A DNA stretch of 5,538 nt. It comes from Escherichia phage ID52. The notes under the pieces are model-generated. The model ran no database searches, was not told the origin of the DNA, and saw only the letters and a program-made list of their open reading frames with translations. Below are positions 1 through 5,538 of the stretch, piece after piece (positions within the stretch are counted from its first letter, which is position 1; the number at the start of each line of letters is the position of its first letter). A program made the position numbers and the translations under genes. Where the stretch lies: sequence record NC_007825.1. One strand, 5' to 3'.

Positions 1-3
1 TGC

Positions 4-33
4 TTGACTAATACTCAATCACCACTCTAATAT
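4..33 (+). promoter_or_regulatory. Candidate sigma70 promoter upstream of gene A (pA-like)
   Basis: TTGACT at 4-9 and TAATAT at 28-33 separated by 18 nt, in the H-A spacer just upstream of A. Position matches the known pA location in phiX174-type phages. Sequence-only prediction. Confidence 0.45.
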
Positions 34-58
34 GCCTCCCATCAAACGGAGGCTTTTC
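34..58 (+). terminator. GC-rich hairpin plus T-run in H-A spacer (TH-like terminator/attenuator); stem includes the gene A Shine-Dalgarno
   Basis: GCCTCC (34-39) pairs perfectly with GGAGGC (48-53) around an 8-nt loop (40-47), followed by TTTT (54-57) and then the A start codon at 59. The 3' arm contains the GGAGG that serves as the A ribosome-binding site. Confidence 0.4.
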
Positions 59-1723
59 ATGTTTAAAACTCATTCTGACTACTTCAATAAACCAAACATC
101 GACGCAATCAAACCACTCGTCGAAACTGCTGGTATGTCTGTTCTTACTCAGTCTCCAAACCTCCGTATCTGGAAACAGTGCAATACTCGTATCAAACTTC
201 TTGAAGAAATCCTTGCTCATTATACGAATGGTATTCGCCGTGATGATAATGGTGACTTCTGGATGAATCCAAACTCTCAACTCGCAACCACTATTGCCTA
301 TCGTGCCCACCAAAAAGGCCACAATCCTAAATTCAAACAATACCCAGAGTCGTTTACTCTGGATGACATTATTACTGGCAAACCAATCCCTCAAACCGCC
401 CCTGACGAATTACAACTCTCCGATGAAATCGGTGAAGACTACCGTCTTACAGTCCTCTCCATAATCGAAGAACTGCAAGAATGTTACGATGTGCTCGGAC
501 AACTTGATATTAATAACACTATAGACCACAAACCCCTTGGTAATACTCACTGGGACTTACTCTATGAAAAACCCGTATACAAACATTGGACTCAACTCGT
601 TTCAAAACGACCCCTTAAAGATATCCGCGCCGATTACAACTATGCAAAGGCGAAGGGTATTAAGGATGAATGCTCAAAAATCTTGGAGGAATCTACTATG
701 AAGTCCCGTCGTGGATTTACCGTCCAAAGATTGATGAATGCTATGCGTACAGCCCATACTCAGGGCTGGTATGTGGTATTCGACACTCTTACCCTAGCCG
801 ATGACCGCTTAAAGGATTTCTATGATAATCCCAATGCTCTTCGTGACTACTTCCGTGGTATTGGTCGTATGGTTCTTACTGCCGAGGGTCGCTCGGTGCA
901 TGAGTCATCTGCCGACTGCTATCAGTATTTTTGTGTGCCAGAGTATGGTACACAGCACGGTCGTCTACATTTCCACGCAGTGCATCTTATGCGCACACTT
1001 CCTTTGGGTTCTCTGGACCCTAACTTCGGTAAGTTGGTACGCACTAATCGGCAAATAAATAGCTTGCAAAACACGTGGCCTTATGGTTACTCTATGCCCA
1101 TCGCAGTCCGGTACTCCCAAGATGCTTTCTCTCGTGCTGGCTGGCTCTGGCCTGTGGATGCAAAGGGTGAACCCCTTAAAGCTACCTCGTATATGGCTGT
1201 AGGCTTCTACGTTGCTAAATACGTTAATAAAAAATCAGATATTGACATGGCCGCAAAAGGCCTAGGGAATAAAGAATGGAACAATTCGCTCAAAACCAAA
1301 ATCAACCTCATACCCAAGAAGGTGTTCAGAATCCGAATGTCCCGCAACTTCGGAATGAAGCTACTCTCAATGGCTCACCTGTCAGCGGAAACTCTGATGG
1401 AACTGACCCAAGTGGGCTACGACGTGACCCCGTTCAACAACATCTTGAAGCAGAACGCCAAGAAAGAGCTCAAATCGAGGCTGGCAAAGAAATCTGTCGC
1501 AGACGTTTTGGAGGCGCAACCTGTGACGACCAATCTGCTAAAATTCATGCGCAATTTGACCCGAACAATCGGAGTGTCCAGCCTACAGAGTTTTATCGCT
1601 TCAATGACCACGAAATTATCAAGTACGGATATTTCTGATGAAACCAAAACTTACGTTGCTGATGCAGGAATTGCTGTTGCTAACTTACGAATTAAATCGA
1701 AGTGGACTGCTGGTGGAAAATGA
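59..1723 (+). CDS. A: Replication initiation protein A (HUH rolling-circle endonuclease)
   Basis: ORF 32..1723; preferred start is ATG 59, preceded by GGAGG (48-52) at 6-nt spacing, giving 554 aa. Strong recalled similarity to phiX174/G4 protein A along the whole length, including HFH (nt 968-976) and [10 protein letters not shown] with catalytic tyrosines (codons 1208-1210 and 1220-1222). Contains the origin sequence at 500-529. Confidence 0.92.
500..529 (+). other. Viral (+) strand rolling-circle origin; protein A nick site between G506 and A507
   Basis: Exact match to the conserved 30-nt Microviridae origin as I recall it, CAACTTGATATTAATAACACTATAGACCAC, located inside gene A and encoding ...[10 protein letters not shown]... 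Confidence 0.88.
698..1723 (+). CDS. A*: Protein A* (in-frame internal restart within A, C-terminal 341 aa)
   Basis: In-frame ATG at 698 (STM-KSRRGF...) at the position homologous to the phiX174 A* start; predicted 341 aa, the same length as phiX174 A*. Whether it is expressed cannot be read from sequence. Confidence 0.65.
1276..1638 (+). CDS. B: Internal scaffolding protein B (overprinted inside A in a different frame)
   Basis: 120-aa [11 protein letters not shown]...[10 protein letters not shown]...[15 protein letters not shown], matching recalled phiX174/G4 protein B, including the [10 protein letters not shown] motif and aromatic C-terminus. Stop TGA 1636-1638 overlaps the K start. Confidence 0.9.
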
Positions 1724-1808
1724 GGAAATTCAATCTCAACTTAAAAAACTCGAGGTCGTCTTACTTCGCAACCTTTCGCCATCATCTCAACGTGCTGGCA
1801 AAGACTGA
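1638..1808 (+). CDS. K: Protein K (small non-essential protein overlapping the end of A and start of C)
   Basis: Hand translation from ATG 1638 gives 56 aa: [56 protein letters not shown], stop TGA 1806-1808. Closely resembles phiX174 K (also 56 aa, ...[20 protein letters not shown]...). Below the length cutoff of the supplied ORF track. Confidence 0.85.
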
Positions 1809-1983
1809 CGCCCTTGACGAGGAGAAATACCTGAATATGCTAGGTGCTCTCCTTAAGGACTGGTTCCGGTACGAGGAACATTTCGTACATGGTAAACAAT
1901 CAATGCTTGACATATTGAAAGAGCGTGGCCTATTATCCACATCGCCAACTGACAATAATGTCCGTACTAACAAAGGAAACTGA
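1720..1983 (+). CDS. C: Protein C (DNA maturation; switch from dsDNA to ssDNA synthesis)
   Basis: ORF 1702..1983; preferred start is ATG 1720 within the ATGA overlap with the A stop (1721-1723), giving 87 aa: [21 protein letters not shown]...[12 protein letters not shown]...ILKERGLL, matching recalled phiX174/G4 protein C. Confidence 0.9.
1907..1936 (+). promoter_or_regulatory. Candidate sigma70 promoter inside gene C driving D-E-J-F-G-H (pD-like)
   Basis: Consensus -35 TTGACA at 1907-1912 and TATTAT at 1931-1936 with an 18-nt spacer, about 50 nt upstream of the D start. Position matches the known pD location inside gene C in phiX174-type phages. Confidence 0.5.
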
Positions 1984-1984
1984 A

Positions 1985-2443
1985 ATGTCTAAATCAAATG
2001 AGTCTGCTGTAGCTTTTCAAACTGCTATTGCTTCTATCAAGCTTATCCAAGCCTCTTCCGTTCTCGACTTGACCGAAGATGACTTCGACTTTTTAACTCG
2101 CGACCGTGTATGGATTGCTACCGACCGCTCACGTGCTCGCCGTGCTATCGAGGCCTGTGTATATGGAACGCTGGACTTTGTCGGGTATCCTCGCTTTCCT
2201 GCTCCTGTTGAGTTTATTGCTGCCGTCATTGCTTATTATGTTCATCCCGTCAACATTCAGACGGCCTGTCTTATCATGGAAGGTGCAGAGTTTACCGAAA
2301 ACATCGTTAATGGTGTCGAACGCCCTGTTAAGGCCTCCGAATTGTTCGCCTTTACTCTTCTCGTTCGTGCCGGAAACAAAGACCTTATTGGTCATGCCGA
2401 AACAAACATCCGTGAACAATTACGCGCTCAAGGAGTTATGTAA
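1985..2443 (+). CDS. D: External scaffolding protein D
   Basis: ATG 1985 preceded by AAGGA (1973-1977); 152 aa: MSKSNESAVAFQTAIASIKLIQAS...VYGTLDFVGYPRFPAPVEFIAAVIAYYVHPVNIQTACLIMEGAEFTEN..., near-identical over long stretches to recalled phiX174 protein D (152 aa). Confidence 0.95.
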   Translation: MSKSNESAVAFQTAIASIKLIQASSVLDLTEDDFDFLTRDRVWIATDRSRARRAIEACVYGTLDFVGYPRFPAPVEFIAAVIAYYVHPVNIQTACLIMEGAEFTENIVNGVERPVKASELFAFTLLVRAGNKDLIGHAETNIREQLRAQGVM

Positions 2444-2474
2444 TGAAAAAATCAATTCGCCGCTCCGGCGGTAA
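2163..2474 (+). CDS. E: Lysis protein E (MraY-inhibiting single-gene lysis protein, overprinted in D)
   Basis: ATG 2163 in a frame different from D; N-terminus MERWTLSGILAFLLLLSLLLPSLLIMFIPSTF matches the conserved transmembrane domain of phiX174 E. The frame stays open to TAA 2472-2474 (103 aa), past the D stop and into J. Confidence 0.8.
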   Translation: MERWTLSGILAFLLLLSLLLPSLLIMFIPSTFRRPVLSWKVQSLPKTSLMVSNALLRPPNCSPLLFSFVPETKTLLVMPKQTSVNNYALKELCNEKINSPLRR

Positions 2475-2520
2475 ATCTAAAGGTGCTCGCCTCTGGTATG
2501 TAGGCGGAACGCAATACTAA
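2443..2520 (+). CDS. J: DNA-binding/packaging protein J (small basic protein)
   Basis: ATG 2443 overlapping the D stop (TAATG), preceded by AGGAG (2431-2435); 25 aa: MKKSIRRSGGKSKGARLWYVGGTQY, highly basic. Matches my recollection of G4 J (25 aa) rather than the 38-aa phiX174 J. Confidence 0.9.
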   Translation: MKKSIRRSGGKSKGARLWYVGGTQY

Positions 2521-2526
2521 TTTTTC

Positions 2527-2542
2527 GGGGGCTACGGCCCCC
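2527..2542 (+). terminator. GC-rich hairpin in J-F spacer (TJ-like terminator / mRNA-stabilising hairpin)
   Basis: GGGGGC (2527-2532) pairs perfectly with GCCCCC (2537-2542) around a 4-nt loop TACG. Sits between the J stop (2520) and the F ribosome-binding site AAGGA (2549-2553). No strong downstream T-run, so any terminator activity would be partial. Confidence 0.4.
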
Positions 2543-2560
2543 CAATTTAAGGATACAAAA

Positions 2561-3844
2561 ATGTCTAACGTTCAAACTTCTGCGGACCGCGTACCTCATG
2601 ACTTATCTCATCTCGTTTTTGAAGCTGGTAAAATCGGCCGCCTCAAAACTATCTCTTGGACACCTGTTGTTGCTGGTGACTCTTTCGAGTGTGATATGGT
2701 TGGTGCTATTCGTCTGTCCCCTCTTCGTCGCGGCCTCGCTGTTGACTCACGTGTTGATATCTTTTCTTTCTACATCCCACACCGTCATATCTATGGTCAG
2801 CAGTGGATTAACTTTATGAAGGATGGCATTAATGCCACCCCTCTCGCTCCTGTTACTTGCTCATCTGGCTGGGACTCTGCTGCGTATCTCGGTACTATTC
2901 CGTCCTCTACGCTCAAAGTGCCTAAATTCTTACATCAAGGCTATCTGAATATTTATAACAACTACTTTAAGCCGCCTTGGTCTGACGACTTAACTTATGC
3001 TAACCCGTCCAATATGCCTGAACAGGATTACAAATGGGGCGTGCGTGTCGCTAACCTTAAATCTATCTGGACCGCACCACTGCCACCGGATACCCGTACA
3101 TCTGAAAACATGACTACTGGTACATCCACTATTGACATTATGGGCCTACAGGCCGCATATGCTAAATTACACACGGAACAGGAACGTGATTATTTCATGA
3201 CCCGTTACCGTGACATTATGAAAGAGTTCGGCGGACACACCTCTTATGATGGTGATAATCGCCCTCTTCTGCTTATGCGCTCTGAGTTCTGGGCTTCTGG
3301 CTATGACGTAGACGGTACTGACCAATCCTCACTCGGTCAATTCTCTGGTCGTGTTCAGCAGACCTTCAATCATAAAGTGCCACGCTTCTATGTTCCTGAA
3401 CATGGCGTAATCATGACTTTGGCTGTTACTCGCTTCCCGCCTACTCATGAGATGGAAATGCACTATCTTGTAGGCAAGGAAAACTTAACCTATACCGATA
3501 TTGCTTGTGACCCTGCGTTGATGGCTAACCTGCCTCCTCGTGAAGTGTCCTTGAAGGAGTTCTTCCACTCCTCGCCTGATTCTGCTAAATTCAAAATCGC
3601 AGAAGGCCAATGGTATCGCACACAGCCTGACCGTGTTGCATTCCCTTATAACGCTCTGGACGGATTCCCGTTCTACTCTGCTCTCCCGTCCACGGAACTA
3701 AAAGACCGTGTACTGGTTAACACTGATAACTATGATGAAATCTTCCAGTCTATGCAGCTTGCACACTGGAACATGCAAACTAAATTTAACATTAATGTCT
3801 ACCGTCACATGCCTACGACTCGTGACTCAATCATGACCTCGTAA
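2561..3844 (+). CDS. F: Major capsid protein F
   Basis: 427-aa ORF, MSNVQTSADRVPHDLSHL...GRLKTISWTPVVAGDSFE...LRLSPLRRGLAVDSRVDIFSFYIPHRH..., strongly matching recalled phiX174/G4 F. AAGGA at 2549-2553, 7 nt upstream of the ATG. Confidence 0.97.
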   Translation: MSNVQTSADRVPHDLSHLVFEAGKIGRLKTISWTPVVAGDSFECDMVGAIRLSPLRRGLAVDSRVDIFSFYIPHRHIYGQQWINFMKDGINATPLAPVTCSSGWDSAAYLGTIPSSTLKVPKFLHQGYLNIYNNYFKPPWSDDLTYANPSNMPEQDYKWGVRVANLKSIWTAPLPPDTRTSENMTTGTSTIDIMGLQAAYAKLHTEQERDYFMTRYRDIMKEFGGHTSYDGDNRPLLLMRSEFWASGYDVDGTDQSSLGQFSGRVQQTFNHKVPRFYVPEHGVIMTLAVTRFPPTHEMEMHYLVGKENLTYTDIACDPALMANLPPREVSLKEFFHSSPDSAKFKIAEGQWYRTQPDRVAFPYNALDGFPFYSALPSTELKDRVLVNTDNYDEIFQSMQLAHWNMQTKFNINVYRHMPTTRDSIMTS

Positions 3845-3980
3845 GGCAACAAAGGCCGCCCCTCTACTGGTCAGATGCCTGCCCAATGTGGGGCGGACCG
3901 TGCCTACGGAGATACCCGAATCTACGATACATGGACGGCGTAGCCGCCGTCCCTACTGCAAAGCCAAAAAGGACTAACAT
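3845..3980 (+). other. F-G intergenic region with stable hairpins; candidate complementary (-) strand origin of the G4 type
   Basis: 136-nt non-coding spacer. Perfect 8-bp GC-rich hairpin GGACGGCG (3933-3940) / CGCCGTCC (3945-3952) with loop TAGC. Second stem CCGCCCC (3856-3862) / GGGGCGG (3890-3896) enclosing a 27-nt loop. Small hairpin CCGT/ACGG (3898-3909). In G4 the primase-dependent complementary-strand origin lies in the F-G spacer. Confidence 0.6.
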
Positions 3981-4514
3981 ATGTTCCAGAAATTCATTTC
4001 TAAGCACAATGCTCCAATTAGCTCTACTCAGGTTACTGTTACTAAAACTCCGGCTGCCACGGCACCTGTTTTAGATGTGCCTGGCTTAAGCCGTTCTACT
4101 ATTCAAATCAATGTAACAACCACAGCCGTTACAACTCATTCAGGCTTGTGCCACGTTGTTCGTATTGATGAAACAAACCCAACAAATCATCATGCTCTAT
4201 CTGTTGCAGGTTCATTGTCGCATGTCTCTGCTGATATGATTGCTTTTGCTATTCGCTTTGAAGTCGCCGACGGCGTTGTTCCTACTGCCGTTCCGGCTTT
4301 ATATGACGTTTATCCTATTGAAATTGTCAATACTGGCAAAGCAATCTCATTTAAAGACGTTGTGACTATTGACTCACATCCCCGCACTGTCGGTAACGAC
4401 GTTTATGCGGGTATTATGCTCTGGTCTAACGCTTGGTCTGCCACCACTACCTCTGGCGTTCTCTCTGTTAATCAGGTAAATCGTGAGGCTACTGTTCTCC
4501 AGCCTTTAAAATAA
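3981..4514 (+). CDS. G: Major spike protein G
   Basis: 177-aa [13 protein letters not shown]...[10 protein letters not shown]...[18 protein letters not shown]...SGVLSVNQV...LQPLK; conserved C-terminal blocks match recalled G4/phiX174 G. AAGGA at 3969-3973, 7 nt upstream of the ATG. Confidence 0.95.
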
Positions 4515-4524
4515 GGATTATCCT

Positions 4525-5538
4525 ATGCTTGGTTCTGTCGTTGGTGGTATCGCCTCCGCTCTTGCTGGAGGCCTTACAGGTAAATTATTTGGCGGCGGTC
4601 AGTCCGCCAATTCCACCGGAGTGCAAGGTAATATTCTTGCCTCTGACAACAATGTTATTGGTGCTAATGATGCTGGTATTAAATCTGCTATTCAGGGTTC
4701 TAGCCTCCCTAACTTTAAAGAGGCTGCCCCCTCTGCTATCTCTGGGATTCTTGCCGATTCTGGCAAGCATGCGCTCTCGTCTCTTACCAATGCTGGTACA
4801 AATAAACTCATGGAAGCTGTCGGCCTTTCTAAGTCTGCCTCTGATAAGGGCAAGGATACAAAAGACTATCTTGCCGCCGCATTCCCCGAGCTCAACGCAT
4901 GGGAGCGCGCAGGTGCTGGTGCTTCTGGTGCAGGCATGCAAGATGCTGGCTTCCAAAATCAGAAAGAGCTAACCAAGATGCAGCTTGACAATCAAAAGGA
5001 AATCGCTAAGATGCAGAACGAAACTCAGAAGGAAATCGCTGGGCTTCAATCTATCACTTCACGCGAAAATACTAAGGATGCTGTCTATGCTCAAAATGAA
5101 ATGCTCGCGTATAACCAAAAAGAGAGTATGTCACGCGTTGGCGCTATTCTCGAAAACACAAGCCTCACCAAACAACAACAAACTTCTGAAATTATGCGGC
5201 AGATGCTTACTCAGGCTCAGACCACGGGTCAGCATTTTACAAATGAGCAAATCAAGGAGCTTACGCGAAAAGTTGGCGCTGATATTGATGCTGTTCGTGC
5301 TAACACTGAACGCACCCATGTAGAAACTGACCGCTCAAAACAGGAGGTTCAAAACTCCCGTTACGCTTCCTCGCAGGTAGGCAAAACCGCTAAGGACGTT
5401 TCCAATGCAATTACTGATACAGCTAGTTCTATTGTTGATTATTTTCGTGGTGTTGATCAAAAAGTGGCAGACGTTTACAACAACTATTTCAAAGATGGCA
5501 AATCGAAAGGAATAGAATCCAATCACCGTTCCAAATAA
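4525..5538 (+). CDS. H: Minor spike / DNA pilot protein H
   Basis: 337-aa ORF, Gly/Ala-rich N-terminus ([10 protein letters not shown]...KLFGGGQ), central [18 protein letters not shown] and [23 protein letters not shown] coiled-coil region, matching recalled phiX174/G4 H. AAGGA at 4513-4517, 7 nt upstream of the ATG. Stop codon is the last 3 nt of the window. Confidence 0.95.

Follow-up and report, generated by a model that had tools for sequence, protein, structure and literature searches.

A complete Gequatrovirus genome of the NC6/vB_1081 lineage with a three-codon insertion in the tail of gene C

The genomes of the Bullavirinae span ~5.4–6.1 kb, with phiX174 (Sinsheimervirus) at 5386 nt and the alpha3-like genomes at ~6.1 kb. 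In phiX174, genes D and J meet in a TAATG junction, and priming of the (-) strand uses a PriA-dependent primosome assembly site instead of direct recognition by DnaG. Phage G4 (V00657.1, 5577 nt), the type member of Gequatrovirus, carries a 43-nt spacer between D and J that is flanked by a direct repeat (AAGGTGTCATGTAA / AAGGAGTTATGTAA), and its record annotates an RNA primer of replication at 3970–3997 and an origin of complementary strand synthesis at 3998. Two G4-like phages with genomes of 5529 nt are of particular relevance here. Shigella phage vB_1081 (PV477269.1) was obtained from sewage in China and has Shigella sonnei as its host, while papers citing Rokyta et al. 2006 (PMC4627924, PMC1472247) describe coliphage NC6 (DQ079907.2) as a natural isolate from that study.

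The stretch of DNA analyzed here (the window, 5538 nt) is almost certainly the complete viral (+) strand of a circular ssDNA phage of E. coli or Shigella (Microviridae, Bullavirinae, Gequatrovirus) in its conventional linear form, belonging to the 5529-nt NC6/vB_1081 lineage within the species group Gequatrovirus G4. In a megablast search, positions 1–5538 aligned to positions 1–5529 of GenBank entries for complete circular genomes of Gequatrovirus G4, the species to which the nearest records are assigned in the NCBI taxonomy. Identity was 98.6% to vB_1081 and 98.2% to NC6, both covering 100% of the window, and ~91–93% to G4 and ID11 (91.25% in a global comparison with V00657). A total of 372 records span at least 80% of the window. 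The size falls within the Bullavirinae range, the window is collinear with records annotated as circular, and both of its ends match those of complete circular records base for base, so that it holds exactly one genome equivalent and nothing more. The preliminary description had called the genome near-complete and had suspected that part of the H-A spacer might be missing. This was mistaken, as the ends are those of complete circular records and the spacer is present in full, with 58 nt identical to those of G4.

The phage is of an already known kind, and what is new lies at the strain level: approximately 70–90 substitutions, most of them synonymous, and a single in-frame insertion of 9 nt relative to its nearest relatives. 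Compared to vB_1081 there are 71 substitutions (51 synonymous, 18 non-synonymous, and 2 intergenic), and compared to NC6 there are 92 (60, 28, and 4, respectively). The predominance of synonymous changes indicates that this is a live genome under purifying selection. The overlapping-gene architecture, which leaves only 245 bases non-coding and has 845 double-coded, offers nothing new. The correct label for this DNA is a whole phage genome of the Gequatrovirus NC6/vB_1081 lineage rather than a bacterial locus, and its significance beyond labeling is very small.

Two other origins for the window as a whole can be weighed against this assignment. If it were phiX174, for example carried over from an Illumina spike-in, or an alpha3-like phage, the eleven-gene architecture and the 30-nt origin would look just as they do, since both are shared. 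However, phiX174-like (Sinsheimervirus), alpha3-like and other non-G4 Bullavirinae reach only 60–80% identity to the window, in contrast to 93–98.6% for 363 G4-like records; the length of 5538 nt is close to 5529–5577 nt, and a G4-type primer/origin region is present in the F-G spacer. This origin can be dismissed outright, and the earlier preference for a G4-like phage over phiX174 is borne out. The other possibility is that a larger bacterial replicon harbors the sequence as a segment derived from a microvirus, either as a prophage-like copy or on a plasmid. Among Microviridae outside Bullavirinae, some are described as proviruses in Bacteroidetes genomes (PMC3091885). Nothing in this analysis spoke for such an arrangement, whereas several results speak against it. 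The window had no match among 5,426 complete E. coli genomes, plasmids included, which gives no indication that it sits within a larger replicon. Searches of the GTDB genomes for junction and insertion patterns returned none, and the window starts and ends where complete circular records do, with exactly one genome equivalent in between. The chance of an integrated or plasmid-borne copy is close to negligible, and these findings support the original view that this is not a bacterial chromosomal locus.

The way in which the presumed circle was opened is also as originally described. The first base of the window is that of the H-A spacer, ahead of A, and its last three are the H stop codon TAA (5536–5538), and the cut at the H-A boundary follows the convention used for G4 (V00657) and all 367 G4-like records. 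No terminal repeat was found in the window. A 300-nt query across the 5538-to-1 junction splits into two places in every G4-like record of the phage collection, which is uninformative because every one of these records is cut at the same conventional point. Exact junction patterns had no match in IMG/VR, the JGI metagenomes, or GTDB, collections that may hold no close G4-like contigs. Circularity is instead seen in an independently assembled relative, Logan DRR845691, found through an exact-protein look-up with gpD. This contig has a 30-nt terminal overlap, 5528 unique nt, and 94.2% identity, and in it the H stop runs directly into the same spacer and then into A, making the H-to-A junction contiguous.

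As noted from the outset, the eleven Bullavirinae genes A, A*, B, K, C, D, E, J, F, G, and H each occur once, in canonical order and on the + strand. All have an intact start and stop without internal stops, at coordinates homologous to those of relatives, and they overlap as is usual for the subfamily, B lying within A, E within D, and K bridging A and C. The expected similarity to Microviridae was found for the proteins as well as for the full-length genome, with all ten distinct proteins exceeding the curated Pfam gathering cut-offs of their expected families. Gene A (59–1723) encodes the HUH rolling-circle replication initiator of 554 aa (Phage_GPA, 4e-60), which has an HFHAVH motif (residue 304) and a two-tyrosine motif, YVAKYVNK (residue 384). 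Its coordinates are those of NC6, ID11, and G4, and it is identical to NC6 and vB_1081 at 549–550/555 positions. The start at ATG 59 is preceded by GGAGG 6 nt upstream and sets the length of the H-A spacer at 58 nt. A mechanical open reading frame begins at ATG 32; this start was rejected, as it abuts a hairpin and has no Shine-Dalgarno sequence, and all relatives annotate ATG 59. A* (698–1723, 341 aa) is an in-frame internal restart of A, whose ATG is preceded by TTGGAGGAATCTACT, with GGAGG upstream, and whose coordinates equal those annotated in NC6, ID11, and G4. The internal scaffolding protein B (1276–1638, 120 aa; Phage_B, 2e-49) lies within A in another frame. Its stop overlaps the start of K (TGATG), which spans the A/C boundary (1638–1808, 56 aa; Protein_K, 1e-16) and is identical to K of NC6 and vB_1081 at 57/57 positions, the stop being counted. 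Similarly, the A stop overlaps the start of C (ATGA), which encodes the DNA maturation and packaging-switch protein (1720–1983, 87 aa; Phage_C, 2e-38, residues 6–72).

In the second half of the genome, the external scaffolding protein D (1985–2443, 152 aa; gpD, 4e-83) is 100% identical to that of NC6, vB_1081, and ID11. The lysis protein E (2163–2474, 103 aa; Microvir_lysis, 7e-15) is embedded in D and crosses the D/J boundary; it is identical to E of NC6 and vB_1081, matches ID11 at 75/104 positions, and has 96 aa in G4 and ID11. J is the DNA-binding core protein (2443–2520, 25 aa; Microvir_J, 2e-16). Because the 43 nt that separate D from J in G4 are missing, its start overlaps the D stop (TAATG), and the window and the NC6 clade retain a single copy of the direct repeat. 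This deletion, common to the NC6 clade, is the main reason that the window is shorter than G4; the length difference is located in the D-J spacer, the J-F spacer, and gene C. The major capsid protein F (2561–3844, 427 aa; Phage_F, 9e-169) is identical to vB_1081 at 426/428 positions. The major spike protein G (3981–4514, 177 aa; Phage_G, 5e-35) agrees with vB_1081 at 178/178, NC6 at 173/178, and ID11 at 160/178 positions, and the minor spike/DNA pilot protein H (4525–5538, 337 aa; Microvir_H, 4e-136) agrees with both NC6 and vB_1081 at 336/338. The 43-nt deletion, the TAATG overlap, and the 103-aa E are the marks of the NC6/vB_1081 lineage. The window shares gene order, coordinates, the TAATG overlap, and the D, E, J, K, and G proteins with vB_1081; it shares its architecture and identical D, E, J, and K proteins with NC6, which has 5 amino-acid differences in G. 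With G4 it shares the eleven genes, at identical coordinates up to gene C, and with phiX174 the gene set and order and the 30-nt (+) origin.

The non-coding and regulatory elements, all given on the + strand, follow the same pattern. The H-A intergenic spacer (1–58) is identical to that of G4 V00657 and NC6 over 1–62 and has one substitution relative to vB_1081. A promoter scan found a sigma-70-like match at 4–33, the position expected for P_A, followed by a GC-rich hairpin (34–53) and TTTT. This hairpin is terminator-like in its placement after H (fold of -11.8 kcal/mol, z = -2.8), and its 3' arm provides the GGAGG Shine-Dalgarno sequence of gene A (48–52). The viral (+) strand origin, a conserved 30-nt gpA recognition and cleavage sequence within gene A, lies at 500–529; the phiX174 30-mer CAACTTGATATTAATAACACTATAGACCAC matches it at 30/30 positions and matched in 0/200 shuffles. 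The best sigma-70-like match in the window (1907–1936, TTGACA-18-TATTAT, 11/12) is probably P_D, given its position ~50 nt upstream of D. Between J and F, the hairpin GGGGGCTACGGCCCCC (2527–2542) differs in sequence from GTGGGACCGCGGTCCCAC of G4 and has similar stability (-14.9 compared to -15.1 kcal/mol). No Rfam family was matched at gathering thresholds.

The F-G intergenic spacer (3845–3980) in all probability carries a complementary (-) strand origin of the G4 type, with hairpins for direct recognition by DnaG and a predicted primer start at CTG. Three hairpins are predicted (3854–3899, 3907–3926, and 3933–3952), along with a primer template at 3931–3957 and a CTG initiation trinucleotide at 3956–3958. 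The spacer aligns with the primer and origin annotated in V00657 and is collinear with G4 in this region; the loop of oric hairpin I reads AAAG in G4 and TAG in the window, an oric variant shared with vB_1081. As ssDNA it folds at -28.3 kcal/mol (z = -3.9), and 0/200 shuffles were equally stable. The presence of a G4-type priming site, together with 60–80% identity, separates the window from phiX174. Based on these conserved parts and on homology to G4 and phiX174, the phage would be expected to follow the textbook G4/phiX174 cycle. Host DnaG primase would recognize the F-G spacer hairpins on SSB-coated ssDNA, and complementary-strand synthesis primed at CTG 3956–3958 would yield the replicative form. 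The gpA nuclease would then nick the origin at 500–529 for rolling-circle replication, until gpC turns replication to packaging into procapsids. F, G, and H would assemble into these with the help of the scaffolds B and D, J would condense the DNA, and gpE would lyse the cell.

The single new feature of the genome is a patch in the C-terminal tail of gene C (1954–1969, + strand), which consists of a 9-nt in-frame insertion (aligned at 1959–1967) and five flanking substitutions. As a result, the tail is altered from ...STDANHKGN to a 12-residue ending, and gpC has 87 aa in the window as opposed to 84 aa in every other G4-like record, including G4. NC6 and vB_1081 lack the insertion, which accounts for the shorter gpC of vB_1081. 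The departure from the form of this lineage is at the strain level and leaves family membership unaffected. The patch sits between the P_D-like promoter and the ribosome-binding site of D, and it creates a new ATG at 1958 in the D frame. None of the 363 G4-like phage records contains it; its exact 28-mer was not found in IMG/VR, the GTDB genomes, or the JGI metagenomes, a degenerate back-translation had no match in IMG/VR, and the exact gpC protein of the window is not on record. Local duplication or template switching was rejected as the source of the insertion, as a 15-mer query, allowing up to 3 mismatches on either strand, had no match other than the patch. The idea of RNA structure in the D leader was rejected too: folding does not reach significance with the insertion (z = 0.40) or in its absence (z = 0.31).

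The insertion falls in the part of gpC that is not conserved, its C-terminal tail, and is most likely tolerated there as a change that is either neutral or mildly modulating. It has been considered that the insertion and its flanking changes are an assembly or sequencing artifact or a laboratory construct, and that the real phage is a plain 5529-nt relative of NC6 and vB_1081. The absence of the patch from the records and contig collections searched is in keeping with this idea, as is the concentration of 14 changed positions in 16 nt, set in a background of 98.6% identity. Yet the insertion is exactly three codons long and keeps both the gene C frame and its stop, it is neither a homopolymer slip nor a local duplication, and the D Shine-Dalgarno sequence and start are unchanged. 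In addition, the patch falls outside the conserved Phage_C domain and in a stretch coded by C alone, with K ending at 1808 and D starting at 1985, where an indel should be tolerated. An artifact or construct is therefore very improbable. It is somewhat less improbable, though still unlikely, that the patch is adaptive, either by retuning D expression or the gpC replication-to-packaging switch or by giving a D protein with a 9-residue N-terminal extension from ATG 1958. In that case, it might represent a short recombinational acquisition from an unsampled Gequatrovirus lineage. Laboratory adaptation of ID12 struck the same few nucleotides, with a 1970 A>G change (PMC4627924).

Should the patch prove functional, it would be a small and tractable example of how a genome with dense gene overlap tolerates indels in the few stretches that are singly coded. 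The window also adds one more natural strain to an experimental-evolution model system, with a unique three-codon indel in the rarely variable gene C and, at residue 47 of H, the ancestral Ala where NC6 has Val.

When the whole window was compared by megablast with 50,697 phage records, it was matched at 100% coverage by Shigella phage vB_1081 (PV477269, 5529 nt; 98.6% identity) and coliphage NC6 (DQ079907, 5529 nt; 98.2%), followed by ID12, WA6, NC10 and ID8 (~93–94%) and the 5577-nt ID11-type genomes (~93%). Global alignment with G4 (V00657) gave 91.25% identity. In total, 363 G4-like records lie at ≥90% identity, whereas the 189 records at 60–80% belong to other Bullavirinae such as Sinsheimervirus, and the preliminary description was thus correct in preferring a G4-like phage to phiX174. 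All close relatives carry a circular annotation and are placed in Microviridae; Bullavirinae; Gequatrovirus; Gequatrovirus G4. Judged by its sequence, the window is a new strain, with no more than 98.6% identity to any sequence in the searched collections, of a phage group that is already known and has been studied intensively. Its architecture and mechanism offer nothing new.

A six-frame ORF list read against the annotated relatives confirmed the eleven Bullavirinae genes in canonical order on one strand: A (59–1723), A* (698–1723), B (1276–1638), K (1638–1808), C (1720–1983), D (1985–2443), E (2163–2474), J (2443–2520), F (2561–3844), G (3981–4514) and H (4525–5538), all on the plus strand. 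Every gene opens with ATG, closes with a proper stop, is free of internal stops and has a purine-rich ribosome-binding site. All 10 distinct proteins exceed by a wide margin the curated Pfam cut-off of the family expected for them (Phage_GPA, Phage_B, Protein_K, Phage_C, gpD, Microvir_lysis, Microvir_J, Phage_F, Phage_G and Microvir_H). The defining features of the Bullavirinae and of the G4-like genus, so far as they can be tested from sequence, are all present. The window ends on the H stop codon (TAA), as originally described, and position 1 is the first base of the H–A spacer. A mechanical ORF placed the start of gene A at ATG 32; this was rejected, since ATG 59 is the annotated start in all relatives. 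ATG 59 is preceded by GGAGG 6 nt upstream, and this start makes the H–A spacer 58 nt long. Antisense to the 5′ portion of gene A, the minus strand carries a 128-aa ORF with a TTG start (8–394); no equivalent is known from annotated Bullavirinae, and the ORF probably exists by chance.

The genome had been called near-complete, possibly with part of the H–A spacer missing, and neither point holds. The genome is complete: window 1–5538 aligns to 1–5529 of the closest records, with identical sequence at both ends, and the spacer (1–58) is present in full, being identical to that of G4. Linearisation at the H–A boundary stands, this start point being the convention for G4 and all 367 G4-like records. 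The length difference between the window (5538 nt) and G4 (5577 nt) is accounted for in the D–J, J–F and F–G spacers and gene C. In the D–J spacer, the window shares with NC6 and vB_1081 a 43-nt deletion between direct repeats. G4 features a near-perfect 14-nt direct repeat here (AAGGTGTCATGTAA / AAGGAGTTATGTAA; V00657 2421–2480), of which the window (2429–2445) and the NC6 clade retain a single copy, resulting in a TAATG D/J overlap and the lengthening of E from 96 to 103 aa. From the sequence, this looks like a repeat-mediated deletion or, alternatively, a duplication in G4. The J–F spacer is 5 bases shorter than in G4 through two deletions (3 nt and 2 nt), two 1-nt differences in the F–G spacer offset each other, and gene C carries a 9-nt insertion. 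Downstream of J, a stable intergenic hairpin (2527–2542) has the stem GGGGGCTACGGCCCCC as opposed to GTGGGACCGCGGTCCCAC in G4, with nearly equal predicted stability (−14.9 vs −15.1 kcal/mol); structure rather than sequence appears to be conserved in these predictions.

The window has no terminal repeat, and the H–A junction is spanned by no G4-like record in the phage collection because all are cut at the same point. Junction patterns found no match in IMG/VR, JGI or GTDB, collections that possibly hold no close G4-like contigs. An exact-protein look-up with gpD led to Logan assembly contig DRR845691 (L013), which is 5558 nt long, cut inside gene G and 94.2% identical to the window. Its 30-nt terminal overlap indicates a circular 5528-nt sequence. 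In L013 the H stop runs directly into TGCTTGACTAATACTCAA and on through the same hairpin into gene A; a relative assembled independently thus shows the 5538-to-1 junction unbroken. Circularity and strandedness of the window molecule are supported only indirectly. No match to the window was found in 5,426 complete E. coli genomes including plasmids; there is thus no hint of embedding in a larger replicon, in agreement with the initial view that this is not a bacterial chromosomal locus. L013 is itself a G4-like genome from a public sequencing run; since its identity to each of the window, NC6 and vB_1081 is only ~94%, it represents a further divergent lineage within the short-genome clade.

At 500–529, inside gene A, the window matches the 30-nt viral-strand (+) origin of phiX174 in 30 of 30 positions, and the gene A protein contains the motifs HFHAVH and YVAKYVNK. 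The F–G spacer (3845–3980) is collinear with the G4 region annotated as ‘RNA primer of replication’ and ‘origin of compl. strand synthesis’ (V00657), and its single strand is predicted to fold into three hairpins (3854–3899, 3907–3926 and 3933–3952; −28.3 kcal/mol, z = −3.9), with the (−) origin primer template at 3931–3957 and the CTG at 3956–3958. Hairpin I (3933–3952) differs from its G4 counterpart solely in the loop, which is a 3-nt TAG in the window, as in NC6 and vB_1081, and a 4-nt AAAG in G4; neither the stems nor the CTG start site is altered. Promoter-like sites occur at the positions expected for P_A (4–33) and P_D (1907–1936, an 11/12 match), and a hairpin with a T-run lies downstream of H (34–53). 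By homology, we infer the standard G4 cycle, in which DnaG would prime on the F–G hairpins, the replicative form would be produced, and gpA would nick the origin to drive rolling-circle replication. gpC would then switch replication to packaging into F/G/H procapsids built with scaffolds B and D, J would condense the DNA, and E would lyse the cell.

The sole indel relative to vB_1081 and NC6 is the 9-nt in-frame insertion in gene C, aligned at 1959–1967 and immediately flanked by five substitutions (1954–1956 and 1968–1969), with a further P-for-S change at 1945. The gpC tail, ...LLSTSSTDANHKGN in relatives, is altered and longer in the window (87 vs 84 aa). The insertion lies outside the conserved Phage_C domain (Pfam, residues 6–72), in one of the few stretches with single-gene coding. 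It is absent from all 363 G4-like records and was not found in IMG/VR, GTDB genomes or JGI metagenomes, and the exact 87-aa protein is not on record. An origin by local duplication or as an inverted copy was rejected, as a 15-mer search of both strands, allowing up to 3 mismatches, recovered nothing but the patch. Owing to the insertion, the presumed P_D leader is 9 nt longer and contains a new ATG at 1958, which lies 9 codons upstream of D in the same frame and lacks a Shine-Dalgarno sequence; the leader is predicted to be unstructured both with and without the insertion. We read the insertion as a tolerated strain-level variant; an effect on regulation or on gpC function is possible but lacks support. 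During laboratory adaptation of ID12, 1970 A>G was fixed a few bases from this patch (PMC4627924).

Substitutions comprise 51 synonymous, 18 non-synonymous and 2 intergenic changes relative to vB_1081, and 60, 28 and 4, respectively, relative to NC6, as is typical of a functional genome on which purifying selection acts. Differences from both relatives cluster in the A/B overlap (1348–1376), where they are mostly silent in A, at third codon positions, and alter B residues 25–34. Such a cluster points to a hypervariable patch in the internal scaffolding protein that is tolerated since it leaves A unaffected. The spike protein G (3981–4514) shows 100% identity with its counterpart in vB_1081, a phage of Shigella sonnei, and differs by 5 residues from that of coliphage NC6 and by 18 from that of ID11, a pattern that could bear on host range. 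Codon 47 of H (4663–4665) encodes Ala in the window and vB_1081 and Val in NC6; A47V is reported to have arisen as an adaptation to heat when G4 was evolved in the laboratory, and natural G4-like phages are polymorphic for it (PMC1472247).
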